From NCBI GenBank assembly GCA_038321865.1, contig JBBQFH010000054.1:1-12346 (forward strand): DNA of 12,346 nt, given 5' to 3'. The translations under genes were made by a program, and so were the position numbers. Shown piece after piece: positions 1 through 12,346 of this stretch. Position 1 is the stretch's first letter. Each line of letters begins with the position of its first letter. The notes under the pieces were generated by a model that saw only the letters and a program-made list of their open reading frames with translations, was not told where the DNA came from and did no database searches. The DNA is from Gemmatimonadales bacterium. Its GTDB lineage: Bacteria > Gemmatimonadota > Gemmatimonadetes > Gemmatimonadales > GWC2-71-9.

Positions 1-828
1 TAGGGTGTTGATCTGGGGGTGGCCGTCCTGAGTGGCCACTACGGCTTGTGTGCATGCCTGGTGGGGGGTTGGGAGGGGGGGCGGGGGGGGGGGGGGCGGC
101 GGGGTGGTCGCCGTGGTCGTCACAAAGTCGGAGACTAGCGCTTCCGCGAGCCGGTCCCCGGTGAGGTCGGTGATGGCGTCCCCAACGCTGAGTGTATAGG
201 CGGTCGTCGAGGCGAGCGGCGCCGCCGGCACGAACTCGATGCCGACGCTCGAGCCCGCGAGCGGGCGCAGCGCCCCCGCCACCGGCTGGCCGTTCTGCAG
301 CAGCCGGACCGTGCTGGAGGTCACCGTCGCCAGATCCACCGGCTCGCTGAAGATCACGGCGACCGACGCGTTGATCGCCACATCGGTGCGGCCGCTGGCC
401 GGGCTGGTGCGCACCACACGCGGCGGCCGGCGGATCGGAACAACGGCCTTCGCCAGACTCACGCCGCCACCGGACAGTACGATCGTGATCGCCAGTGTGT
501 CGCCGGCGGCCGCCGGGATCGCTACGGGATCGAAGCCGCCGTCGACCAGCGTGACCGGGCGCGAAGCGCCGCTCCGCAGGTCACGGATAGTCCCGGTCGT
601 GCCATCGGGCATGGCACCTGGCGTGAGCGACACGAACGCGACTGGCTCAAGCGCTGAGACGTTCGCCGCCACGGCACCTGTGGCCATCACACCGCCCGCG
701 GCCACCGTGTTCGATACGACCGGCGTAAAGCCCCCGGCTGGGACCGGCCCGGTCGCGGTCGGCGCATCGCTGCATGCGACGGCCGACAGCGAGATGAACC
801 AGATCCAACACAGCGCCGAGCGTCGCAT
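1..828 (-). CDS. Putative lipoprotein, 3'-partial: signal peptide, unnamed 'GGFDPV' beta domain, Big_5/SbsA-type Ig-like domain, poly-Pro linker, then probably a Kelch region. Paralog of 920-2836.
   Basis: Not in the ORF track; translated by hand. ATG at 828 follows GGGAGAGGAAG (RBS-like). Reads MRRSALCWIWFISLSAVACSDAPT...GGFDPVAIPAAAGDTL...PRVVRTSPASGRTDVAINASVAVIFSEPVDLATV...IEFVPAAPLASTTAYTLSV...GDRLAEALVSDFVTTTATTPPPPPPPPP, with no stop before position 1. Lipobox-like AVAC. Confidence 0.88.
   Translation of the reverse strand, partial: MRRSALCWIWFISLSAVACSDAPTATGPVPAGGFTPVVSNTVAAGGVMATGAVAANVSALEPVAFVSLTPGAMPDGTTGTIRDLRSGASRPVTLVDGGFDPVAIPAAAGDTLAITIVLSGGGVSLAKAVVPIRRPPRVVRTSPASGRTDVAINASVAVIFSEPVDLATVTSSTVRLLQNGQPVAGALRPLAGSSVGIEFVPAAPLASTTAYTLSVGDAITDLTGDRLAEALVSDFVTTTATTPPPPPPPPPLPTPHQACTQAVVATQDGHPQINTL
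63..104. repeat. G-homopolymer cluster (G6 at 63-68, G7 at 75-81, G14 at 83-96) encoding a poly-proline linker on the minus strand
   Basis: Directly visible. Reads as CCC/CCG codons giving nine consecutive Pro. Confidence 0.9.
341..828. repeat. Direct repeat copy 1 (5' block of the left lipoprotein gene); partner is 2349-2836
   Basis: Ungapped hand alignment at offset 2008 gives about 57 mismatches in 488 bp (~88% identity). Confidence 0.95.
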
Positions 829-919
829 CAAGACTTCCTCTCCCAAGAATGTTGTGGTTCCACACTCCCTATCGCGGCAATAGTATCAAGCGCGCGGCCG
901 CTTCCGCTGATCGACTCGG

Positions 920-2836
920 CTAGCGCCGCGAAGCAGGAGATGGATAGACCACCAGCCCGTCCTGGCCCAGCAGATACAACACATTTCCGTTCCATGCCAT
1001 GCCGTCGCAGATCTGCGCCCAAGCGGCAGATACAGAGTGGATCGTCCATGTCCCAGTCAGCGGCTCATATTCGCCAAGTCCGTCATTGGAGGCCACATAC
1101 ACCCGGCCCGCGTGACCCGCGATGCATGCTGGTAAGATATTCGGCGAATTCCCCACGAGCGTCGGGGGCATCGGAGGCAGTGCGCTCCAGCTGTCGGTGG
1201 CGGGGTCGTACACACTCAACGCCAGATCGCCTTGCACATCGATCAGTCCACCTGCGACGTAGATCAACCCGTTCACGGCCACTGTCCCGCCTCCCGGATG
1301 CTCGATGGGCAGCGATGCCCGACTCGTCCACCTGTTTGTAGCCGGATCGTAGGCGTCAACCGTTGAATCGAAGCCAGAAGCCCCATAGCCGCCAACGGCG
1401 TACAAGATCCCATTCACAACGGCGATGCCAACGCCGGATTTCGGGTGCGGGAGTGGGGCCCGAGTCGTCCAGGTGTTCGAGATCGGGTCATAGGCCTCCA
1501 CAACCGGCGATGGGGATGTGAACCCCAGCTCAGTGTAGCCGCCGACCGCATACAGAATCCCGTTCATCTCAACGATTTGCTCGGCATAGCGAGCCGTAGG
1601 CATCGGCGCGCGGGTGCTCCAGGTATTGGTGGCCGGGTCATAGGCCTCGACCGTTGCCACCACGGATGGGTTTTCGTCGGCCCATCCCGTGGAATGTTGC
1701 CCGCCGATCACATAGACGAGGCCGTTTACCACCCCGCCGCCCACCGAGAGCCTCACCGTTGGATAGGTTACCATGACCCCCGTCGGGCACTGCCCTGGGC
1801 AGATCCCAAATTCCTCGCTCAGAGCGGGATTGAGGCCGCTTCCGGTCGCCTTGAGGCGATGCCTGCCAGCCTCGGGAAACGTGATGTTCTCGAAAATTGC
1901 CCGGCCGTTCACGGCCGCGACCGTGGCAAGTTCACGCGTAACGGTCCAGGCGCCGCCGTCCAGCGTGTAGTTCCAGGTGAGGAGCGCCAGCGTCACCAGG
2001 CCAGTGTAGGCGGGAATCGTGGAGTGCGACGATACGCCCTCGACGGACACACGCAGCAGCGTCGGGATGCCGGGAAAGCCACTGCTGGGCTGGCTCGCGA
2101 AGACGAGCATCATGCCTTCGCCAGCGGTCTGGAAGTCGCTCACCAGCGGCCCTTCGAGTCCGTCGCCGGTGCCATCGGCAATCGTGTTGGTCAGCACCAG
2201 TTGATACGCCGCACCCGACGACAGGGGCTGCGCCGGCACGAATTCGACGCCAACAGCCGACGCGGGATCTGGTCGAATCACGCCGGGCACCGCCACCCCG
2301 TCCTTGAGCAGCTGTAGCGATTGCGAATTGACGGTCGCCAGGTTGATGGGCTCGCTGAAGATCACCGCGATGGTCGCGTTGATGGCCACATCCGTGCGGC
2401 CTGTGGCCGGGCTGGTGCGCACCACACGCGGCGGCCGGCGGATCGGAACAACAGCCTTCGCCAGACTCACGCCGCCGCCGGCCAGTGCGATCGTGATCTC
2501 CAGTGTGTCGCCGGCGGCGGCAGGGATTGCCACGGGGTCGAAGCCACCTTCCACCAGCGTGACCGGACGCGAAGCGCCGCTCCACAGGTCACGGATCGTC
2601 CCGGTCGTGCCATCTGGCACGGCACCTGGCGTGAGCGACACGAACGCGACTGGCTCCAGGGCGGACAGGCTCGGCGCCACCGCGCCGGCGGACGCCGCGC
2701 CCGTTCCAGTCACGGCGTTCGATACGACCGGCGTAAAGCCCCCGGCCGGGACCGGTCCGGTCGGTGTCGGCGCATCGCTGCATGCGACGGCCGACAGCGA
2801 GATGAACCAGATCCAGCAGAGCGCCGAGCGTCGCAT
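920..2836 (-). CDS. Putative lipoprotein (638 aa): signal peptide, 'GGFDPV' domain, Big_5-type Ig-like domain, second Ig-like domain, C-terminal Kelch beta-propeller
   Basis: The track ORF 920..3034 is over-extended into the anti-sigma gene. ATG at 2836 follows GAGGAAGG and matches the paralog start at 828. Kelch repeats: VYVIGG...VEAYDPATNTW, LYAVGG...VEAYDPISNTW, LYAVGG...VDAYDPATNRW, IYVAGG...VYDPATDSW, plus two degenerate blades. Confidence 0.92.
   Translation of the reverse strand: MRRSALCWIWFISLSAVACSDAPTPTGPVPAGGFTPVVSNAVTGTGAASAGAVAPSLSALEPVAFVSLTPGAVPDGTTGTIRDLWSGASRPVTLVEGGFDPVAIPAAAGDTLEITIALAGGGVSLAKAVVPIRRPPRVVRTSPATGRTDVAINATIAVIFSEPINLATVNSQSLQLLKDGVAVPGVIRPDPASAVGVEFVPAQPLSSGAAYQLVLTNTIADGTGDGLEGPLVSDFQTAGEGMMLVFASQPSSGFPGIPTLLRVSVEGVSSHSTIPAYTGLVTLALLTWNYTLDGGAWTVTRELATVAAVNGRAIFENITFPEAGRHRLKATGSGLNPALSEEFGICPGQCPTGVMVTYPTVRLSVGGGVVNGLVYVIGGQHSTGWADENPSVVATVEAYDPATNTWSTRAPMPTARYAEQIVEMNGILYAVGGYTELGFTSPSPVVEAYDPISNTWTTRAPLPHPKSGVGIAVVNGILYAVGGYGASGFDSTVDAYDPATNRWTSRASLPIEHPGGGTVAVNGLIYVAGGLIDVQGDLALSVYDPATDSWSALPPMPPTLVGNSPNILPACIAGHAGRVYVASNDGLGEYEPLTGTWTIHSVSAAWAQICDGMAWNGNVLYLLGQDGLVVYPSPASRR
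2349..2836. repeat. Direct repeat copy 2 (5' block of the 920-2836 gene); partner is 341-828
   Basis: Same hand alignment as copy 1. The first 24 encoded residues are identical. Confidence 0.95.
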
Positions 2837-2859
2837 GATGACTTGGCCTTCCTCAGAAT

Positions 2860-2887
2860 GTCGCAGCTTCGTGAGACGAGGTTTACA
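2860..2887 (-). promoter_or_regulatory. Possible ECF-type promoter TGTAAAC-N17-CGAC upstream of the 920-2836 gene
   Basis: Fits the generic ECF pattern AAC-N16/17-CGWC and lies just upstream of the RBS. Its spacer contains CGTCTCA, which resembles the -10 half of the cluster motif. Confidence 0.3.
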
Positions 2888-2946
2888 ACAACGGCGAGCG
2901 GCTATGCCACAGCTTCGAAAGGAGGACGCGGTGGGAAGCATTGTCC

Positions 2947-3720
2947 TCATTGCAACACCGCGCGCCCAACCGAGAACGCCGTAAGCTCCGACTGGGTCCA
3001 GCGATCGAAGCCGACCCGCGCCTCCACCCGCCACCAGTAAGCGACCCCCTCAGCCAGAGGCACGCTCGCCGGGACGGCCGCCGCGGTATCCGCCGTCGTG
3101 CCTTCCCACACGATGGACCCCTCGGCGTCGAACACCGTTACGCGATACTGGCGCGCCTCGGCCGTCGGCCTCCAGACGAGCCGAATCGGGCGGGACACCG
3201 CCACATCCGCTGGCGTCAGCACCACCGGACCGGCGGCCGCCACTGGAGACACGTCGCGATAGACGGTTTGACCGGCCGGCACGGTGCCTGGCGTCCGGGC
3301 GAGCAGCACAGCGACGGCGACGACGGCCGCGACTGCGCCGAAGGCGAGCGCATGTCGCTGCCAGCCATGGCGCACCGGCCGTTCCAGTCGCTCGATCTCG
3401 GCCGCCAGCGATGCCTGGCCCGTGGCCGAGGCCACGGCCGAGACTTCGGCGCGACACGCGGCGCACTGTGCCAGATGGCCCAGTTCAACGGCCGTGCCGC
3501 CGCCATCTGCCAACCGCGCGACCGTGAACTCGTCCAGGCAGTTTGCTCCGGTCCGTACCCCTTCGTCCGCCCACCGAAGCTCGTCAGCCAGGCCCTTGAG
3601 CTGTTCCAGCGCCGGCCGGCACCATTCACACCCGTCCGCGTGCGCGGCTGCGGCATGGTCATCGGCGCCCAGCGCCAGACGCATGAGAACGGCATCGGAT
3701 GGACAGAACGGGTTGGCCAC
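2947..3720 (-). CDS. Membrane-anchored zinc-binding anti-sigma factor with two tandem ZAS (zf-HC2-like) motifs, one TM helix and an extracytoplasmic FN3/Ig-like domain
   Basis: GTG start with GGAG 6 nt upstream. C6-x20-H27xxxC31xxC34 and C61-x20-H82xxxC86xxC89; hydrophobic segment ALAFGAVAAVVAVAVLLA; C-terminal LVW...YRVTV...YWWRVEA pattern. Directly downstream of a sigma factor gene. Confidence 0.88.
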   Translation of the reverse strand: MANPFCPSDAVLMRLALGADDHAAAAHADGCEWCRPALEQLKGLADELRWADEGVRTGANCLDEFTVARLADGGGTAVELGHLAQCAACRAEVSAVASATGQASLAAEIERLERPVRHGWQRHALAFGAVAAVVAVAVLLARTPGTVPAGQTVYRDVSPVAAAGPVVLTPADVAVSRPIRLVWRPTAEARQYRVTVFDAEGSIVWEGTTADTAAAVPASVPLAEGVAYWWRVEARVGFDRWTQSELTAFSVGRAVLQ

Positions 3721-3760
3721 GATGAGCTCCGGAGGATTGGAATACGCCGAACGATGTCAC

Positions 3761-3790
3761 ATGAAACGGATTGGAGGGCGGGAATTGCTC
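3761..3790 (-). promoter_or_regulatory. Candidate ECF promoter upstream of the anti-sigma gene (GAGCAATT-N12-TCCGTTTCAT)
   Basis: Aligns without gaps to 6949-6978 (GAGCAATC-N12-TCCGTCTCAT) and to 4633-4657. Confidence 0.6.
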
Positions 3791-3824
3791 GGGCGGGATG
3801 ATGGAAGGGGCTGAGGGTCCGGCG

Positions 3825-4589
3825 CTACAGGTCTCCCGGCGTCAGGCCCGCTCGTCCGAGCTCCCCGCGCAGCCTGGCAAGCGCTCGCGAGACCCGGTTG
3901 TAAACCGCCTTCGGGTTGGGCCATCCGACGATCCGGGCGACCTCGGCGGCAGGCAGCTCGTCCACGACGAACAGTTGGACCGCCAGGCGGTCGGTCACGT
4001 CGAGCACCGCGAGGAGCCGGGACACCCGCGCTGCCCCGTCGCTGGCCACTGCGTTCTCCTCCGGCGACGGCACTGCCGATCCGACGAGTTCGGGCATGCC
4101 ACGGCGGCCACCGCCGCCACGGCGGCCGGCCGCCCGGTAGGTCACCCGGAGCGCCTCGGCGAAATCGTGCGCGCTGACAGCGGGGCCATCGGATTGCTGC
4201 AGGCGTCCGAAGCACTCGTCGTGGGAATTTCCCTCCACGAAGACGGCCTGATACACGCGCTGCTGAAGTGCGGTGAGGTTCGCCGGAACCGTGCGTCGCG
4301 GCCGGCCGTCGCGATGGCGGAGCCAGTCGACGGTAAGGTTCCGGACGACAGCGACGAGCCAGGTAGAGAATCGCGCGCCGCCGGATGGCGCATCCGCATA
4401 GCGCCGAAGCCGCGCAAGCTCGTTACGACGCAGCGACTCACAGACGTAGGCGAACACGTCCATGACGTCATCGGCATCGGTGGCGAAATGACGGATCGCG
4501 GAAAAAATCAACCGGCGATACCGGTCGATGAAGAGGGTCCACGCGGCTTCGGCGCGTCCGGCCTGCAACTCCTCGAGCCAGGGATCCAA
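3825..4589 (-). CDS. Sigma-70 family ECF-type RNA polymerase sigma factor (254 aa) with an enlarged linker
   Basis: TTG start with GGAG 7 nt upstream. Sigma2 features: AWTLFIDRYRRLIF, DADDVMD, RFSTWLVAVVRNLTVDWLR. Sigma4: LDVTDRLAVQLFVVDELPAAEVARIVG...VYNRVSRALARLR. Adjacent to a ZAS anti-sigma gene. Confidence 0.93.
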   Translation of the reverse strand: MDPWLEELQAGRAEAAWTLFIDRYRRLIFSAIRHFATDADDVMDVFAYVCESLRRNELARLRRYADAPSGGARFSTWLVAVVRNLTVDWLRHRDGRPRRTVPANLTALQQRVYQAVFVEGNSHDECFGRLQQSDGPAVSAHDFAEALRVTYRAAGRRGGGGRRGMPELVGSAVPSPEENAVASDGAARVSRLLAVLDVTDRLAVQLFVVDELPAAEVARIVGWPNPKAVYNRVSRALARLRGELGRAGLTPGDL

Positions 4590-4632
4590 ACGGCTCTCCA
4601 GGCTGGGAGACGCGCGGTGCGGCAGTCCCGCT

Positions 4633-4663
4633 AGACATACCGTGCGATGCCGATTGCCGCAAG
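4633..4663 (-). promoter_or_regulatory. Candidate promoter region of the sigma gene: GCAATC-N7-CACGGT-N2-GTCT overlapping CTTGCGGC-N15-GTATGTCT
   Basis: Both sub-motifs recur with identical spacing at 6952-6976 and 6979-7009. Confidence 0.6.
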
Positions 4664-4685
4664 CGGGCCGGGTGTGGTACCAGCG

Positions 4686-6881
4686 CTATGGCTGGTAGGC
4701 GAACAGCTGCCGGCCCAGCGCGGCGTACAGGACCTCATTCACGACGCCGACGGCTAGCGTCGTTGCTCCGAAGGGCAGCGGCGCGCCCGGCTGCCAGCTG
4801 TTCGTAGCCGGATCGTACGCCTCGACCGCGCCCTGCGAGCTGCCGTCGCTGCGGCTTCCGCCCACGACATACAGCAGATCGCTCAACACGGCTGCGCCCG
4901 CGTTGAACCGCGCGGTCAGCATCGGCGCCCGGCTCGACCAGATGTTGGCGGCGGGATCGTAGGCGTCCATTGTCTTGGAGTACGCCTGGCCAGTCCAGCC
5001 TCCCACCACATAGAGTTTCCCGTTCAGGCCACTCACCGCCGGACTCTCGAGCGGGGTTGGCAGGGCGGGCCGGGGCGACCAGCTGTTAGTCGCCGGGTCG
5101 TAGGCCTCGACTGTCGCAAGCACCTGTCCGTGACCATAGCCTCCCGCGGCGTAGAGCGTGCCGTTGACGACGCCCACTCCGGGACCCGTGCGCCCGGTGG
5201 GCATCACCTGCCGGGGCGACCAAATGTTCGTTGCCGGGTCGTAGGCGTCCATCGTCGCACTTTCATTGGAGCTGCCATCGAAGCCGCCCACGACATAGAG
5301 AATGCCGTTCACGACGCCTATCCCGAAGTTGCCCCGATCCGATGGCATGGGCGCCTTCGTGCTCCAGCTGTTCGTGGCCGGATCGTATGCCTCTACCGTG
5401 CGCGACGCAGGCGGGTAGTAGTAGTAGGAGGATGACTGGTCGTAGCCACCGACGAGATAGAAAATGCCGTTGATGACCGCTCCCACTGCTCCCGAACGCG
5501 CCGACGGCGGCGGGGCCTTGGGAATCCAGTGGCTGGCCGTGATTGCGAACGGGGTGCTGATCGTCCCCGTGACGCCGGGCTCCGCCGTCGACGCGACGAG
5601 CGTGTAACCGGTACCGGCCGTGCTCAGCCCGAGGTCGGAGAAGTCTGCGACCCCGTTGACCACCCGAACGGTCGTCGTGCCCGACAGCGTCGCGCCGGCA
5701 GGGTGGCTGCCCAGGGCGAGCGTGACGGAACCGCCAAACAACAGATCAACGTTTCCCGCGCCGTTCCGAACCGTTACGCGCACCGGCGGAAGTGCGAATC
5801 CGGCGATGCCGTCGGCCGGCTGCACGGTAAAGAAGAGCGCACTGTTCGATCCGAATGGAAAGCTGGTCGCGCCGGCCATTCCTGCCGCGGTCGCGGTAAG
5901 CGTGCAGCCGCCGCCGGCCCGGTCGATACGCAGGTCAGGGAAATTGGCGATGCCGCTGACCGCGACGACGTGCGTGGTCCCGGACAGGATGCCGCAATCG
6001 GGATTTGCCCCAAGCGCGACGGTCACCTCGCCGACAAACGACGTCAGCGTGACGCCGTTCCCGTCGCGAGCCCGCACCTGCAGGGCCGGCGTGAGGGGCG
6101 CATTGGGTACGAAGAGACCCGGCTGCACGGAGAACTCGAGCGCCGGCACGTAGGAGGCAATAACGCCACTTGCACCCGCTGCAAATCCTGCTGCCGAAGC
6201 CGTCAGGATATAATCGCGTCCGGCCTTGTCGATCCTCAGGTTGTCGAAGGTGGCGACGCCATTGACCGCATGGACCCGCGTCACGCCGGAGAGTACCGCC
6301 CCGGTTGCGTTCGGCCCCAGTGTAATCGTCACTTCACCCGAGAATGTATGCCCGGGGTCCTCGGGGTCCTCGGCGGTGACCTGGATCGCGGGGCTGATCG
6401 GGTCCCCCACCACGAACCCCGTGAGCTGTGGCACGAAACTGAGATAGGCCGCACGCACGACGTCGAACCGGGCACTCGTGGCGCTGCTGCGGGCGGGCGC
6501 GGTGGCCGTGAGCGTGTAGCCCACGCCGCTGGTCATCATGCGGAGCCCGGGAAACAGCGCGATGCCGCGCACAGCCTGGACGGAACGGCTCCCGCTCAGC
6601 GTGCCCGGCGGTGCGTTCTCGCTGACCGCGACCGAGACCAGACCGGTATAGCTCGCGTCGGTGTTTCCGTCGCGAGTGACGGCAGCGACCTGGACGATCG
6701 GGGCCAGCACCGACCCGGCGGGAATGGGCGACCCGGGCGACGAAATGAATACCAGCCCCGGCGCATCCGCCGCCGGCTGGGTGGGGCCCAGCGGTGTGTC
6801 GGCCCGGCAGCCGAGCAACTGTGAGAGGGTCAGGCAACAGACCATCGCGACAGCGCGGCTGGACGCACGACTGAGTGGCAT
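4686..6881 (-). CDS. Putative lipoprotein (731 aa) with four tandem ~100-aa Ig-like repeats and a C-terminal six-bladed Kelch propeller
   Basis: Best start is ATG 6881 (GGAG 6 nt upstream); ATG 6887 is an alternative. Lipobox LLGC. Four repeats of LxFxxQP...V.V...GxVTxxL...LSGT..V.AVxGxAxFxxLxIxxAGxxYTLTA at about 6755-5538. Kelch repeats LYxVGG...(V/M)(E/D)AYDPA(T/A)NxW at about 5528-4689. Confidence 0.93.
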   Translation of the reverse strand: MPLSRASSRAVAMVCCLTLSQLLGCRADTPLGPTQPAADAPGLVFISSPGSPIPAGSVLAPIVQVAAVTRDGNTDASYTGLVSVAVSENAPPGTLSGSRSVQAVRGIALFPGLRMMTSGVGYTLTATAPARSSATSARFDVVRAAYLSFVPQLTGFVVGDPISPAIQVTAEDPEDPGHTFSGEVTITLGPNATGAVLSGVTRVHAVNGVATFDNLRIDKAGRDYILTASAAGFAAGASGVIASYVPALEFSVQPGLFVPNAPLTPALQVRARDGNGVTLTSFVGEVTVALGANPDCGILSGTTHVVAVSGIANFPDLRIDRAGGGCTLTATAAGMAGATSFPFGSNSALFFTVQPADGIAGFALPPVRVTVRNGAGNVDLLFGGSVTLALGSHPAGATLSGTTTVRVVNGVADFSDLGLSTAGTGYTLVASTAEPGVTGTISTPFAITASHWIPKAPPPSARSGAVGAVINGIFYLVGGYDQSSSYYYYPPASRTVEAYDPATNSWSTKAPMPSDRGNFGIGVVNGILYVVGGFDGSSNESATMDAYDPATNIWSPRQVMPTGRTGPGVGVVNGTLYAAGGYGHGQVLATVEAYDPATNSWSPRPALPTPLESPAVSGLNGKLYVVGGWTGQAYSKTMDAYDPAANIWSSRAPMLTARFNAGAAVLSDLLYVVGGSRSDGSSQGAVEAYDPATNSWQPGAPLPFGATTLAVGVVNEVLYAALGRQLFAYQP

Positions 6882-6948
6882 GGTCATCTCCGGGGGGCCG
6901 AACGTTCGCCAGCGCCAGCCGGCGGATCGCGGACGCAATCCATGGGAT

Positions 6949-6978
6949 ATGAGACGGACCGTGGTGGCCGGATTGCTC
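6949..6978 (-). promoter_or_regulatory. Candidate ECF promoter upstream of the Ig4-Kelch gene (GAGCAATC-N7-CACGGTCCGTCTCAT)
   Basis: Shares GCAATC, CACGGT and GTCT (16 of 25 positions) with 4633-4657, and GAGCAAT plus TCCGT.TCAT with 3761-3790. Confidence 0.62.
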
Positions 6979-6983
6979 AGACA

Positions 6984-7007
6984 TACGGCCCGCCGCGCCG
7001 GGCCGCA
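6984..7007 (-). terminator. GC hairpin (CGGCCCG-6nt loop-CGGGCCG) about 20 nt after the MFS stop; possible weak terminator
   Basis: Perfect 7-bp stem 6986-6992/6999-7005, extendable by a G-U and an A-U pair. The U-tract is poor (TATGTCT), and the hairpin overlaps the CTTGCGGC-N15-GTATGTCT motif. Confidence 0.3.
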
Positions 7008-7024
7008 AGATCAGCCGGGGCCCG

Positions 7025-8533: not shown

Positions 8534-9318
8534 TGATCCGGGTACTGAAAATCCGGATCGCCGGCCACCGGCACCTGCGGACGCTCCTCGCGCGCGCGGA
8601 TGACGATGTCGGCCGCCTCCTTCGGATCGTCGGTCAGGCGGAACAGCGTCAGGTCGTTCGGGCCGACCTTGCCTTCCTTCAGTACCGTGTCCTTGATCCA
8701 GTCGATCAGCCCCGCCCAGTACTTCGTGCCGAAGAGGATGACGGGGAAATGCTTCACCTTGCCCGTCTGGATCAGGGTCAGGGCCTCGAAGAGCTCGTCC
8801 AGCGTGCCGAAGCCGCCGGGAAAGACGATGAAGGCCGTGGAATATTTCACGAACATCGTCTTCCGGACGAAGAAGAAGCGGAAGTTGATGCTGCGGCGAA
8901 CGTACGGGTTGGTGCCCTGCTCGAACGGCAGTTCGATGTTGCAGCCGATGGAAATGCCGCCCCCCTCCACCGCCCCGCGGTTCGCCGCCTCCATGATGCC
9001 GGGCCCGCCACCGGTAATGATGGGGCACCCGGCCTCAGCCAGGAGCCGCGCCGTTTCGACCGCCGCCTGGTAGTGCGGATCGGTCGGGGGGGTGCGCGCC
9101 GAACCGAAGATCGAGACGCCGTCGATGATGTCGCCCAGATTGTCGAACCCCTCGACGAACTCTCCCATGATCCGGAACACCCGCCACGGATCGGTCTTGA
9201 GCAGCGCGTCGGGACGGTAGCGGGTCTGCGGCCCCTCGAGGAGAACTTCGTCCTCGGTGGGCCGCTTCATGTCACCGCTCTTGCGGTAGGGGCTGTTCGG
9301 AAAGCTCGAATCAGTCAC
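8530..9318 (-). CDS. LOG family (TIGR00730-type Rossmann fold) nucleotide phosphoribohydrolase
   Basis: Motifs VSIFGSAR, ITGGGPGIMEAANRGA, FFVRKTMFVKYS and PGGFGTLDELFE. The GTG start overlaps the upstream stop (GTGACTGA). Confidence 0.95.
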   Translation of the reverse strand: MTDSSFPNSPYRKSGDMKRPTEDEVLLEGPQTRYRPDALLKTDPWRVFRIMGEFVEGFDNLGDIIDGVSIFGSARTPPTDPHYQAAVETARLLAEAGCPIITGGGPGIMEAANRGAVEGGGISIGCNIELPFEQGTNPYVRRSINFRFFFVRKTMFVKYSTAFIVFPGGFGTLDELFEALTLIQTGKVKHFPVILFGTKYWAGLIDWIKDTVLKEGKVGPNDLTLFRLTDDPKEAADIVIRAREERPQVPVAGDPDFQYPDQ

Positions 9319-10462
9319 GGGTCAGTCGCTCGATGGCGGCGCGGTGGTCGTCCCGCACGTTGTAGAAGTAGGGCGACACGCGAACGTGGCCGGGACGCGC
9401 GTCGGTGACGATGTGCGCATCGGCGAGGCGCTTCACATCGCGGTGGGGATCATCGCTCGGCAGCATGACGATCGCCGTCCGCTCGGCCGCGTCGGGCGCC
9501 ACCTTGGGCCGGAGCCCCGCCGCCCAGGCGCACTCGATCAGATCCTCCGTCAGCTCCATGGTCCGCCGCCGGATCTCGGCACTGCCGAGCGCTTCGAGAA
9601 TGTCCAACCCGCCCAGCTGCGCGTAAACCGGCAGGAGCGGCGGCGTGCCCGCCTCGAAGCGGCGAGCGTCGTCGTGGAACTCGAGCGAGCGCGGGTCGAA
9701 GCGGAACTGCTCCCGGTGGGAGAACCAGCCGGTGGCCTGCGGGAACGACGCCGGCGTGAGGTGCGGCGCGGCATAGAGGAACGCGACGCCGGTGCCGCCC
9801 AGCAGCCACTTGAGCCCGCCCGCGCAGTAGAAGTCCACCCCCAGCGCCTTGACGTCCACCGGAATCTGGCCGGCCGCCTGGTAGCCGTCGATCAGGGCGA
9901 GCGCGCCCCGCCGGTGGGCGATGCCGGCGATCGCCTTCGCGTCCTGGATCGCGCCGCTGGTGAAGAAGACGTGGCTGGTCGCGATGATGGCGGTGCGGTC
10001 ATCGACCGCGCGCTCGATCAGCTCGAGCGGGACCCGGGTGTCGTCCGGACTCTCGATCACGACCACCTCGACGCCGCGCGCTGCCTTGGCCAGCCACTGG
10101 TACGCGATGGTCGGGAAGTCGAGACTGGTGACGACGACCCGGGGCCGCTTCGAGTAATCGAGCGACTCGCCCACCGCGGTCAGCGCCGAGGAGATGTTGG
10201 GATGGAGCGCGATCTCGGATCCCGGCGCGCCGACCACCCGGCCGTACCGGGTCCGCAGCTCATCCAGCGATGCCCACCACACGTCGTACCACGCGGCCGC
10301 ACCCCGAGTCTCCCAGAGATCGAGGTACTCGTTCACCTTCGCACGGGCTCGACCCGACAGCGCGCCCAGGGAGCAGCTGTTGAGGTAGGTCGAATGCCGG
10401 AAGATGGGGAACTCGTCGCGATAGTTCCCCACTGCGGCGCCGGCCGGGGCGGTGGTCGTCAT
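9311..10462 (-). CDS. Aminotransferase class V-fold PLP-dependent enzyme, kynureninase-like
   Basis: YLNSCSLG, DFPT, SHVFFTSG, IDGYQAAG, PLP lysine in GGLKWLLGG, GWFSH, RFEAGTPP, VRVSPYFYN. The substrate cannot be assigned by eye. Confidence 0.92.
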   Translation of the reverse strand: MTTTAPAGAAVGNYRDEFPIFRHSTYLNSCSLGALSGRARAKVNEYLDLWETRGAAAWYDVWWASLDELRTRYGRVVGAPGSEIALHPNISSALTAVGESLDYSKRPRVVVTSLDFPTIAYQWLAKAARGVEVVVIESPDDTRVPLELIERAVDDRTAIIATSHVFFTSGAIQDAKAIAGIAHRRGALALIDGYQAAGQIPVDVKALGVDFYCAGGLKWLLGGTGVAFLYAAPHLTPASFPQATGWFSHREQFRFDPRSLEFHDDARRFEAGTPPLLPVYAQLGGLDILEALGSAEIRRRTMELTEDLIECAWAAGLRPKVAPDAAERTAIVMLPSDDPHRDVKRLADAHIVTDARPGHVRVSPYFYNVRDDHRAAIERLTRD

Positions 10463-10470
10463 AGGGCCGG

Positions 10471-10476
10471 AATATA
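10471..10476 (-). promoter_or_regulatory. -10 element TATATT for the PLP enzyme-LOG-MFS operon; probably a (near-)leaderless transcript
   Basis: TATATT lies 8 nt upstream of the ATG at 10462, and there is no SD-like sequence in between. Confidence 0.55.
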
Positions 10477-10512
10477 CCCGAGTTGCCTAGCGGTGAAACG
10501 GCGGCAAGTTGC

Positions 10513-10521
10513 TGTTAGCTT
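10513..10521 (+). promoter_or_regulatory. Extended -10 element (TG-T-TAGCTT) for the hypothetical-ndh-queG operon
   Basis: TGnTAnnnT pattern; GTGAAA lies 17 nt upstream of the hexamer; GGAG RBS at 10541-10544 precedes the ATG at 10550. Confidence 0.45.
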
Positions 10522-10549
10522 GGTGTAGCCACACACCCATGGAGCCGCG

Positions 10550-10843
10550 ATGGCCGACCCGACGCCGACGCCCGATCCCCGCTACGCGGGATCGTGGAGC
10601 GCACTTGCGTTCCGCCTGGTCGGACGCGCCATCGTGAATCCCCGGCTCGCCGCCGACCTCGTCAAGGCCGGCTGGGCCTTTCGCCGGCGAGGGTGGTGGC
10701 GCTCGCCGCCGTTCCTGCCGCTGCCCGATCGCACCTACCTCCGATGGCGCATGTACACCGCCTACGCCAGCGAGGACGCCGTGCCACCGGCCGACGACGT
10801 GACCCGGTTCGCGCGCTGGCGGCGGGAAACGATGGGCCTGTGA
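10550..10843 (+). CDS. Small Arg/Trp-rich hypothetical protein (97 aa)
   Basis: GGAG RBS; GC3-rich codons; stop overlaps the ndh start (GTGA); fills the gap between the promoter and ndh. Confidence 0.82.
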   Translation: MADPTPTPDPRYAGSWSALAFRLVGRAIVNPRLAADLVKAGWAFRRRGWWRSPPFLPLPDRTYLRWRMYTAYASEDAVPPADDVTRFARWRRETMGL

Positions 10844-12132
10844 CCCCCCGCGTCGTGGTGCTGGGAGGCGGATTCGCCGGCCTTCACGCGGCCAAGGGCC
10901 TCGGCGGGGCGCCGGCGCGGGTGACGGTAGTGGATCGCCACAATCATCACCTGTTTCAGCCGATGCTCTACCAGGTGGCCACGGCGGCGCTGAGCCCCGG
11001 CGACATCGCCTCGCCGATCCGCTCGATCCTCCGGCGTCAGAAGAACGCCGAGGTACTGCTCGCCGAGGCCACTGCGATCGACCTGGCCAACCGGCGAGTC
11101 GTGCTGGCGGACGGCCCGTCGCTGGAGTACGACTACCTCGTCGTCGCCACCGGCGCCAATCATTCCTACTTCGGACGGGACGATTGGGCTCCGTTCGCAC
11201 CCGGGCTCAAGACGATCGAGGACGCGCTGGAGATGCGCCGCCGCGTTCTCCTCGCCTTCGAGCACGCCGAGATGGAGCCCGATCCCGTCAAACGGCAGGC
11301 CTTTCTCAACTTCGTAATCGTGGGCGGCGGGCCCACCGGAGTCGAGCTGGCTGGCGCGCTGGCGGAGATCAAGCGGTACGTGCTGCGCCGCGACTTCCGG
11401 CGCATCGATCCGCGCGAGGCCATCGTCATCCTGATCGAGGGTGGCAAGCGGCTTCTGCCGACCTATCCGCCCGAGCTCAGCGACAAAGCCAAGCAGAGTC
11501 TCCGAAACCTCGGCGTCGACGTGCGGACCGAAATGATGGTGACGGAGATCGGCCCCGACGCAGTGGTAGCCGCGGGGTGGCGCATCCCGGCGCACACGGT
11601 GCTGTGGGCCGCGGGCAACCTCGCCAGTCCGCTCCTCAAGACGCTGGGCGTGCCGCTCGACCGGCAGGGCCGGGTGATGGTGAATCCGGATTGCACCGTT
11701 CCGGATCATCCCGAGGTCTTCGTGCTGGGTGACGCCGCCAACTTTGCCCACGACCCCGCCGGCCCGGTGCCCGGGGTGTGCCCCGCCGCGATTCAGATGG
11801 GTCAGTACGCTGGACGCACGATCGGGGCGGAGCTGCGCTCCTCCGGCGCCCGCGGCGCGGCGGCACGCAAACCCTTCCATTACTGGAACAAGGGCGAGCT
11901 CGCCGTGATCGGCCGGGGCCGGGCCGTGGCCGATATCGGGCGGCTCCATTTCGGCGGGTTCATCGCCTGGCTGATGTGGATCTTCATCCACATCTTTTTC
12001 CTGATCGGTTTCCGCAACCGGGTCATCGTGATGCTGGAGTGGGCCATCTCCTATCTGACCTACTCGCGCGGCGCGCGGCTGATCACCGGCGAGGGCGCCG
12101 GGCCGGCCGGGCAGGAGCCGGCCCGCGGATGA
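10840..12132 (+). CDS. ndh: Type II NADH:quinone oxidoreductase (NDH-2), 430 aa
   Basis: GTG at 10840 (the track ORF from 10594 is over-extended). FAD motif VVVLGGGFAGL, HHLFQPMLYQVAT, YDYLVVATGA, NADH motif VIVGGGPTGVELAG, VFVLGD, C-terminal membrane anchor AWLMWIFIHIFFLIGFRNR. Confidence 0.95.
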   Translation: MTPRVVVLGGGFAGLHAAKGLGGAPARVTVVDRHNHHLFQPMLYQVATAALSPGDIASPIRSILRRQKNAEVLLAEATAIDLANRRVVLADGPSLEYDYLVVATGANHSYFGRDDWAPFAPGLKTIEDALEMRRRVLLAFEHAEMEPDPVKRQAFLNFVIVGGGPTGVELAGALAEIKRYVLRRDFRRIDPREAIVILIEGGKRLLPTYPPELSDKAKQSLRNLGVDVRTEMMVTEIGPDAVVAAGWRIPAHTVLWAAGNLASPLLKTLGVPLDRQGRVMVNPDCTVPDHPEVFVLGDAANFAHDPAGPVPGVCPAAIQMGQYAGRTIGAELRSSGARGAAARKPFHYWNKGELAVIGRGRAVADIGRLHFGGFIAWLMWIFIHIFFLIGFRNRVIVMLEWAISYLTYSRGARLITGEGAGPAGQEPARG

Positions 12133-12346
12133 CAGTCCGAGCGGAAGAGGTTCGGACGCGGGCGCAGGAGCTGGGATTCATCGCCTGCGGCATCACCGAC
12201 ACCGCGCCCACCGCCCATGCCGATCGGCTCGATGCCTGGCTGGCCCGCGGATACGCCGGTACCATGCGCTATCTCCACCGCCAGGCCCGCCGACGAAAGG
12301 AACCGCAGGCGATCAGCATCGACGCGCGATCCGTAGTAGTTGTTCT
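12129..12346 (+). CDS. queG: tRNA epoxyqueuosine(34) reductase QueG, 5' part only
   Basis: Not in the ORF track. ATG at 12129 overlaps the ndh stop (ATGA). Translates to MTVRAEEVRTRAQELGFIACGITDTAPTAHADRLDAWLARGYAGTMRYLHRQARRRKEPQAISIDARSVVVV, matching the QueG N-terminus (ELGF..CGI, WL..G..G.M.YL, R..P......RSV.V). The Fe-S motifs would lie outside the window. Confidence 0.85.
   Translation, partial: MTVRAEEVRTRAQELGFIACGITDTAPTAHADRLDAWLARGYAGTMRYLHRQARRRKEPQAISIDARSVVVV

Follow-up and report, generated by a model that had tools for sequence, protein, structure and literature searches.

A predicted ECF sigma, anti-sigma and TPR-CHAT cassette linked to swappable stalk-plus-propeller lipoproteins in Gemmatimonadota

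In the DdvS/DdvA system of Myxococcus xanthus (PMC11506125, drawn on here in part, as are the other papers cited; PDB: 8rot, 8rlz), a sigma factor of the extracytoplasmic function (ECF) type is accompanied by a single chain that combines a zinc-binding anti-sigma (ZAS) domain, one membrane-spanning helix and, in the periplasm, a TPR-CHAT region. DdvA keeps an H862/C907 dyad, and the regulon of the pair is CBASS/CRISPR; according to the part of the paper drawn on, proteins like DdvA are reported from Myxococcota and a single Comamonas only. The TPR-CHAT fold is likewise linked to sigma control in craspase (Csx29/Csx30/CASP-sigma, type III-E CRISPR), which is cytoplasmic and RNA-triggered and keeps His585 and Cys627, its putative catalytic pair (PMC9825189). 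Sigma factors of group ECF54 also lie near a TPR-CHAT protein and are described, in the part of the source used, as 100% Actinobacteria, with no putative anti-sigma factor, with subtilases and with GTATCAG/CTCC promoters (PMC7826278). Here we analyze contig JBBQFH010000054.1 of the Gemmatimonadales bacterium assembly GCA_038321865.1. Judged from its sequence, the contig carries most of one copy of a conserved Gemmatimonadota-type cassette that consists of a sigma factor, an anti-sigma factor, an exported TPR-CHAT protein and swappable lipoproteins. The predicted cassette is DdvS/DdvA-like in layout without being a member of that system, as its genes are split and its CHAT lacks the catalytic histidine.

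The window is the whole contig (C54, 12,346 nt) within a 3.4-Mb assembly (labelled G000). Five minus-strand genes fill positions 1-6881, and the core genes MFS, LOG, aminotransferase and NADH dehydrogenase follow to the right of the cassette. The cassette features are:

4686..6881, minus strand: KelchA, a predicted lipoprotein of 731 aa (Cys25; alternative start at 6887) with four Ig-like stalk repeats and a six-blade Kelch propeller
3825..4589, minus strand: ECF-type sigma factor of 254 aa with sigma2, an extra sigma4-like three-helix domain and sigma4 (Pfam, model)
4110..4298, minus strand: the extra sigma4-like domain within the sigma gene (Pfam Sigma70_r4_2 in relatives, fold comparison)
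2947..3720, minus strand: predicted anti-sigma factor with twin ZAS, one membrane helix and an Ig/FN3-like outer domain (motifs, family profile)
920..2836, minus strand: lipB, a predicted lipoprotein (Cys19) with a family-specific N-module, Big_5, one Ig-like repeat and a six-blade Kelch propeller
1..828, minus strand: lipC, a lipB paralogue (N-module, Big_5, poly-Pro linker), truncated at the contig end

The original prediction had placed five co-oriented genes here, which are present, all on the minus strand. It had also called the cluster self-contained and had not recognized the combination as a described system. Self-containment does not hold, since the TPR-CHAT gene of the family is absent from the window. 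This exported protein without the catalytic histidine, the most conserved partner and the one that was missed, gives the whole a DdvS/DdvA-like character instead of that of a wholly undescribed combination. Third-position GC content is 0.76-0.81 in the cassette genes at 920-6881, 0.84 in lipC and 0.87-0.91 in the flanking core genes.

Relatives of the sigma factor number 961 among 8,000 candidates scored, and strong matches to the long form found in the window occur in 28 of 401 sampled genomes of the phylum. Two sets of loci were compared, the first comprising 120 loci with a strong sigma match (75 clusters at 90% identity) and the second 40 loci chosen by CHAT instead of sigma; the loci are related, and their counts are not independent. 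Among the 58 clusters with 500 nt or more of downstream sequence, 55 have the anti-sigma gene as the next family gene after sigma. Where at least 6 kb is available downstream (31 loci), TPR-CHAT follows in 26, an N-module lipoprotein in 24 and Kelch in a single one. The loci chosen by CHAT give a matching picture, with an anti-sigma gene in 39, a lipoprotein in 35 and Kelch in 2. The tabulated neighborhoods thus bear out the proposed tie between the sigma/anti-sigma pair and modular stalk-plus-propeller lipoproteins (24/31 loci), and Kelch loses its standing as the defining feature: a Kelch-specific system is rejected, as Kelch is rare in the loci of both sets and makes up only 2 of 35 lipoprotein tips. 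Four reduced loci (L036, L112, L079 and L136) have a long sigma and the motif described below, then a lipoprotein or a truncated anti-sigma gene, and no CHAT.

Family TPR-CHAT proteins are ~1,060 aa long with a signal-peptide-like start, and their CHAT fold matches solved TPR-CHAT chains at E=6e-5 to 2e-4. The assembly contains one full-length strong CHAT-profile match (1,085 bits; the next best scores 236), located at the right end of contig C16. It is preceded by a 5'-open PD40 frame that is similar to the tips of N-module lipoproteins; in two N-module lipoproteins with such tips, stalk and propeller are joined by a short linker. We consider it likely from this arrangement that lipC continues into a PD40 propeller, followed by the TPR-CHAT gene, at the C16 end. 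In the congener G005, seven genes of the C16 end and the MFS, LOG and aminotransferase genes of the window lie on one contig with csoR alone between them, so that both contig ends map to one insertion site in the right orientation. Furthermore, the window sigma and the C16 CHAT find their best match in the same locus, L127 (60% for sigma; 61.5% for CHAT, against at most 48% elsewhere). Gene order and similarity together make it very probable that the window joins C16.

An alternative account holds that the window cassette lost its CHAT gene and that C16 belongs to a sibling organism, the bin being mixed, which would leave the window as a reduced sigma/anti-sigma/lipoprotein unit. No contig bridging C54 and C16 was found in the one sequencing run that contains this DNA; no RNA run containing it was listed, which carries no information on expression. 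Near its contig ends, the assembly contains duplicated core blocks (78-89%), among them 3.3 kb of the window on C5: a LOG-aminotransferase-NADH dehydrogenase-queG block occurs twice, at ~83% identity (window 9038-12346 and G000:C5:5-3309). C54 and C16 could therefore derive from sibling organisms, and the bin may mix two related ones. Sequencing depth is ~9-10 over most of the tested part of C54 and 8-9 on C16, and loci without CHAT do occur. This account nevertheless has to contend with the shared insertion site and orientation, with the 5'-open PD40 frame, with the order anti-sigma-lipoprotein-lipoprotein-CHAT that occurs in L143, and with the presence of one long sigma and one full-length strong CHAT-profile match in the assembly; we find it very doubtful.

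The C16 CHAT and PD40 frames have a third-position GC content of 0.80. In G005:C10 (L158), an empty site (copA-csoR-MFS) is present at 11654-15660; in G000 the cassette stands at the place of csoR, with a csoR-like gene on C7, and G003 has csoR with an Ig-like lipoprotein gene after it. No CHAT was found in any of the five congeners (genomes 66-91% complete). A further CHAT fragment starts contig C81 (G000:C81:2-1156). An ATG overlapping the anti-sigma stop was considered as the start of a deleted CHAT gene and rejected, as a lipoprotein starts at this point in L046 and the CHAT gene was found on C16.

In the CHAT motif HLATYG, the tyrosine aligns with the histidine of the craspase 'CHG' motif, and counting along the alignment gives His585 and Cys627. 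The C16 protein accordingly has tyrosine at the histidine position and retains the cysteine, in contrast to DdvA and craspase, which keep both residues; it also differs from cytoplasmic craspase in its signal-peptide-like start. The histidine position is occupied by another residue in 40 of 41 long-sigma rows, or 32 of 33 when rows are grouped (including C16 and L146, labelled long), and in all 38 readable loci of the second set (2 unread). Six short-sigma cassettes keep the histidine, and His-less short-sigma cassettes also occur. One of the six lies in the same assembly (G000:C73:1179-6095, L153) and comprises a short sigma (221 aa), a single-ZAS anti-sigma, a TPR-CHAT with both His and Cys, and then a lipoprotein. 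The pattern suggests that the CHAT of long-sigma cassettes is likely a non-cutting pseudo-enzyme.

The same residues also allow the opposite view, in which TPR-CHAT still cuts through its cysteine and a substitute base (e.g., the first histidine of HLATYG) and clips the anti-sigma at its linker arginine as the site-1 protease. Cys964 and His915 are invariant in 31/31 CHAT rows, which for the cysteine is odd in a dead enzyme; Arg155 in the anti-sigma linker is invariant in 54/54 sequences; and self-cleavage of the linker has been proposed for DdvA (PMC11506125). The canonical histidine position, however, tolerates Tyr, Phe, Leu, Asn, Arg, Cys, Ser and Thr and thus looks relaxed, and the first histidine is also present in His-keeping CHATs and may be structural. 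A cutting enzyme is quite unlikely in our assessment.

The anti-sigma-like protein (257 aa) contains two HxxxCxxC motifs, each with an upstream fourth ligand (ZAS1: C6, H27, C31, C34; ZAS2: C61, H82, C86, C89), a hydrophobic helix at ~123-141 and a C-terminal beta domain. Its family profile matches RslA, DdvA and ChrR in the PDB, with DdvA covered over ZAS and helix at E=0.011. Pfam zf-HC2 does not match the window protein but matches its C73 paralogue. These features predict a zinc-binding inhibitor of the adjacent sigma factor. RslA/SigL, RsiW/SigW and ChrR/SigE share the C-x20-H-x3-C-x2-C zinc motif before a membrane helix. RslA, RsiW and ChrR have one ZAS each, unlike the two tandem copies met in 18 of 60 long-sigma cassettes. 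None of the 17 short-sigma cassettes has twin ZAS (Fisher p=0.008, overstated since kin are not independent). A recent internal duplication is not supported, as ZAS1 and ZAS2 are only 25% identical (E=0.012). Cassettes with twin ZAS are scattered over the tree, its deepest branches included, a distribution that suggests an old state, often lost.

The family differs from DdvA in placing an Ig/FN3-like domain between helix and TPR, and also in its usual separation into genes, as in the window assembly. The one-chain layout of DdvA occurs in ten other loci, three plus 7/40 of the second set, in which anti-sigma and CHAT share one frame (L137, L140, L144, L179, L182, L189, L190, L191, L203 and L208); their CHAT is His-less, and the fused sequences displayed contain no signal peptide at the joint. 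These fusions argue that anti-sigma and CHAT work together on the outer side of the membrane, as DdvA does.

The sigma factor scores 61.9 bits against TIGR02937 (cut-off 42.9), 27.5 bits against Pfam PF04542 (sigma2; cut-off 24) and 30.8 bits against PF08281 (sigma4; cut-off 25.7). Its model (pLDDT 84.6, pTM 0.44) comprises sigma2, a three-helix domain at 107-157 (annotated as sigma4-like at about residues 103-157), a loose linker and sigma4; the extra domain sets it apart from DdvS. The insert between sigma2 and sigma4 is present in 120/120 top homologues. A search of 1.84 billion clusters with its profile yields only 86, and most of the full-length ones are 250-260 aa with the insert at ~98-158. 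A quick tree of sigma2 plus sigma4 separates the 60 long sigmas from the 17 short ones. The insert of the window sigma has no Pfam match of its own, but Sigma70_r4_2 matches the insert in 17 of 33 family members at E<=0.1. When the insert is folded alone, its 12 best matches in a set of 48,161 chains are sigma factors, and the alignments fall in their C-terminal region (Z 6.1-7.0, root-mean-square deviation 2.4-3.1 A). We predict from the models that the insert is a sigma4-like domain in sigma3 position. A recent internal duplication of sigma4 is not supported (insert against own sigma4, hhalign probability <1%). The 'doubled' pair of the original prediction therefore stands in that each protein holds two domains of one sort, sigma4-like or ZAS, although a recent duplication is supported for neither. 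A second, shortened sigma is present in L104, and in L045 (G036) a ZAS protein and a His-keeping CHAT lie next to a different sigma of 251 aa, which carries an insert of its own between sigma2 and sigma4.

The whole sigma model gives three-domain sigmas (SigB, SigD and SigA) as its best Foldseek matches, so that a sigma3-like role is possible. The insert could then be a functional sigma3 equivalent, and the protein a group-3-like sigma rather than an ECF sigma with a spare sigma4. The position of the insert and a weak FliA/WhiG match over residues 62-243 fit this proposal, with TIGR02479 at 20 bits, far below its cut-off of 189.6. It is countered by the Pfam matches (sigma3 in 0/33 family inserts, sigma4 in 17/33), by the isolated insert, which aligns to sigma4 even in FliA (182-234) and SigB (199-256), and by a predicted promoter with ECF-like boxes whose spacing, by eye, is that of the short-sigma relatives. 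On this evidence a sigma3 equivalent appears highly unlikely.

Instead of the one shared motif before three genes that had been reported earlier, we observed two different motifs, each preceding two genes:

6980..7008, minus strand: sigma70-like motif TTGCGG-N17-TATGTC, 5' of KelchA, abutting the ECF-like motif
6950..6978, minus strand: predicted ECF promoter, 5' of KelchA, best match in the genome (34.4 bits)
4634..4662, minus strand: sigma70-like promoter motif, 5' of the sigma gene, kept in L046, L047 and L049
3762..3790, minus strand: predicted ECF promoter at the sigma/anti-sigma junction, second-best match in the genome (29.5 bits)

TTGCGG-N17-TATGTC has only four matches in the genome, two of them those 5' of KelchA and sigma, and of 73 family sigma genes, 48 have this class of motif upstream (1.3 in shuffles). 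Of 74 clusters, 61 have the ECF-like motif, TGAGCA[AG]t-N12-G[TG]CCGT..A, at the sigma stop. With a matrix trained without the sites of the window, three genome sites reach at least 20 bits, compared to 0.5 in shuffles, and those of the window at 6978 and 3790 rank first and second. The third (24.9 bits; G000:C14:9064-10559) precedes a lipoprotein-like gene whose product presumably resembles an arylsulfotransferase-type propeller, and which is a candidate distant regulon member. Across 853 kb of family loci there are 126 sites of at least 18 bits, of which 122 fall outside genes: anti-sigma genes follow 61 of them, sigma genes 15 and stalk lipoprotein genes 14, and 33 are in other intergenic positions, mostly lipoprotein-like by eye. 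Long-sigma loci nearly always contain such sites (19 of 20) and short-sigma loci seldom (2 of 13), the latter having, by eye, a similar -10 box and a different -35 box at the same spacing. From their form and position, we infer that the motifs are promoters. The ECF-like motif and the presence of an anti-sigma factor place the window sigma outside ECF54, as far as that group is described in the part of PMC7826278 used. Over 44 positions upstream of the -35 box, no third element for the extra sigma4 emerged (at most 0.22 bits; 84 sites not behind a sigma gene, the sites being split by a rough pattern), which leaves the spare sigma4 without an evident DNA site.

KelchA has an LLGC lipobox-like motif; its four ~100-aa repeats are Ig-like by Atlas features, although the two repeats tested have no Pfam match. 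In L046, L047 and L049 (metagenome contigs; sigmas 85%, 85% and 67% identical), no KelchA gene stands between MFS and sigma, and we read KelchA as an accessory insertion, an add-on bringing its own copy of the promoter motif. The 5' part of lipC is 83% identical to lipB over 646 nt of DNA. Of the expected Ig/Kelch lipoprotein trio, KelchA and lipB do carry Kelch; lipC has none inside the window, its likely tip being the PD40 propeller on C16. A poly-G tract within window positions 1-100 encodes the poly-Pro linker of lipC, and positions 1-91 are covered by no listed run contig, so that lipC may be unreliable over its final ~20 codons. Among the tips scanned (35 of 38 listed), 13 are RCC1, 11 PD40, 2 Kelch and 9 unassigned or Big_2 only. 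Given its rarity in family loci and tips, Kelch is best seen as one swappable tip.

Whether the lipoproteins are output or input had been left undecided. The promoter-like motif upstream of the anti-sigma and of many lipoprotein genes favors output over input, and we consider output likely. The lipoproteins might instead be receptors as well as output, with the N-module docking on TPR-CHAT, the propellers binding signals, and the promoter copies providing positive feedback. A common N-module plus Big_5 beneath such varied tips would suit this idea, as would the confinement of the N-module, within its own genome, to lipB and lipC and its lack of a Pfam or usable Atlas match. The N-module is missing, however, from KelchA and many other motif-preceded lipoproteins, L002 and L127 have CHAT without an N-module within reach, and promoters of their own upstream of lipoprotein genes are more simply explained by output. 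We therefore judge a receptor role unlikely.

We propose, with an even chance of being right, that the sigma factor, the membrane anti-sigma and a non-cutting exported TPR-CHAT form a switch for stalk-plus-propeller lipoproteins, acting through a dedicated predicted promoter. Gene order and linkage, domain content, the loss of the CHAT histidine, the anti-sigma-CHAT fusions and the positions of the two DNA motifs are the direct evidence, from which we infer every binding and cleavage step. Basal sigma would be made from a housekeeping sigma70-type promoter and held by the membrane-proximal ZAS, which would bind sigma2/sigma4 as in other ZAS pairs; the distal ZAS, where retained, would add a second lock by binding the extra sigma4-like domain. 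The exported pseudo-CHAT would bind and shield the Arg155 linker and Ig domain of the anti-sigma until some envelope signal displaces it, whereupon a site-1 protease and an RseP-type protease would destroy the anti-sigma. An RseP-like gene is present in the assembly, and RseP-type proteolysis has been demonstrated for DdvA (PMC11506125). Free sigma would then transcribe the anti-sigma operon, giving negative feedback, and the lipoproteins, whose variable propellers would be displayed for ligand binding. The predicted regulon would thus consist of lipoproteins, as opposed to the CBASS/CRISPR regulon of DdvS/DdvA. A more specific version, a new class of two-lock switch in which the spare sigma4 of a sigma2-sigma4-sigma4 factor stays off DNA in the grip of the second zinc finger, and in which the dead TPR-CHAT gates the anti-sigma from outside and reads a shuffled set of propeller lipoproteins that sigma amplifies, is tentative and unlikely. 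Cas genes were not called in the neighborhoods examined, and in a PADLOC scan CHAT matched a generic TPR model only and the five other proteins matched nothing.

Several observations weigh against the proposed switch, in addition to the invariant CHAT cysteine, the duplicated core blocks, the absent bridging contig and the relatedness of the loci. A single ZAS in 42 of 60 long-sigma cassettes indicates that a second lock is dispensable. Of the 31 long loci, five have no downstream CHAT (one has it upstream, two have only a truncated anti-sigma, two have neither), and the similarity rankings of sigma and CHAT over 30 loci correlate weakly (rho 0.31, p=0.10). L109, a long-sigma locus, keeps the CHAT histidine, yet groups with His-less sequences in a quick CHAT tree. 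The Z scores of the insert are middling (7.0 at best), and Foldseek returned nothing below E=0.001 for it. Lastly, lipB and lipC have no ECF-like motif copy of their own, which would call for read-through from the anti-sigma promoter.

The interest of the cassette lies more in its CHAT, spare sigma4 and promoter than in Kelch. We found no paper describing a sigma/anti-sigma/TPR-CHAT/lipoprotein cassette in Gemmatimonadota in the literature searched (subscription journals outside the scope), and the fused loci represent DdvA-like one-chain proteins beyond the groups named in the part of PMC11506125 drawn on. The family offers natural split, fused, His-less and His-keeping versions, with one pair within a single assembly (C54/C16 and C73); together with a sharp predicted promoter for a reporter, these make the question of sensor or protease directly testable. 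How rigid the two-domain definition of ECF sigma factors is can also be probed with a sigma factor that has two sigma4-like domains and a partner with one or two ZAS. As a whole, the predicted cassette points to a variable surface-lipoprotein regulon in a phylum with little bench genetics.

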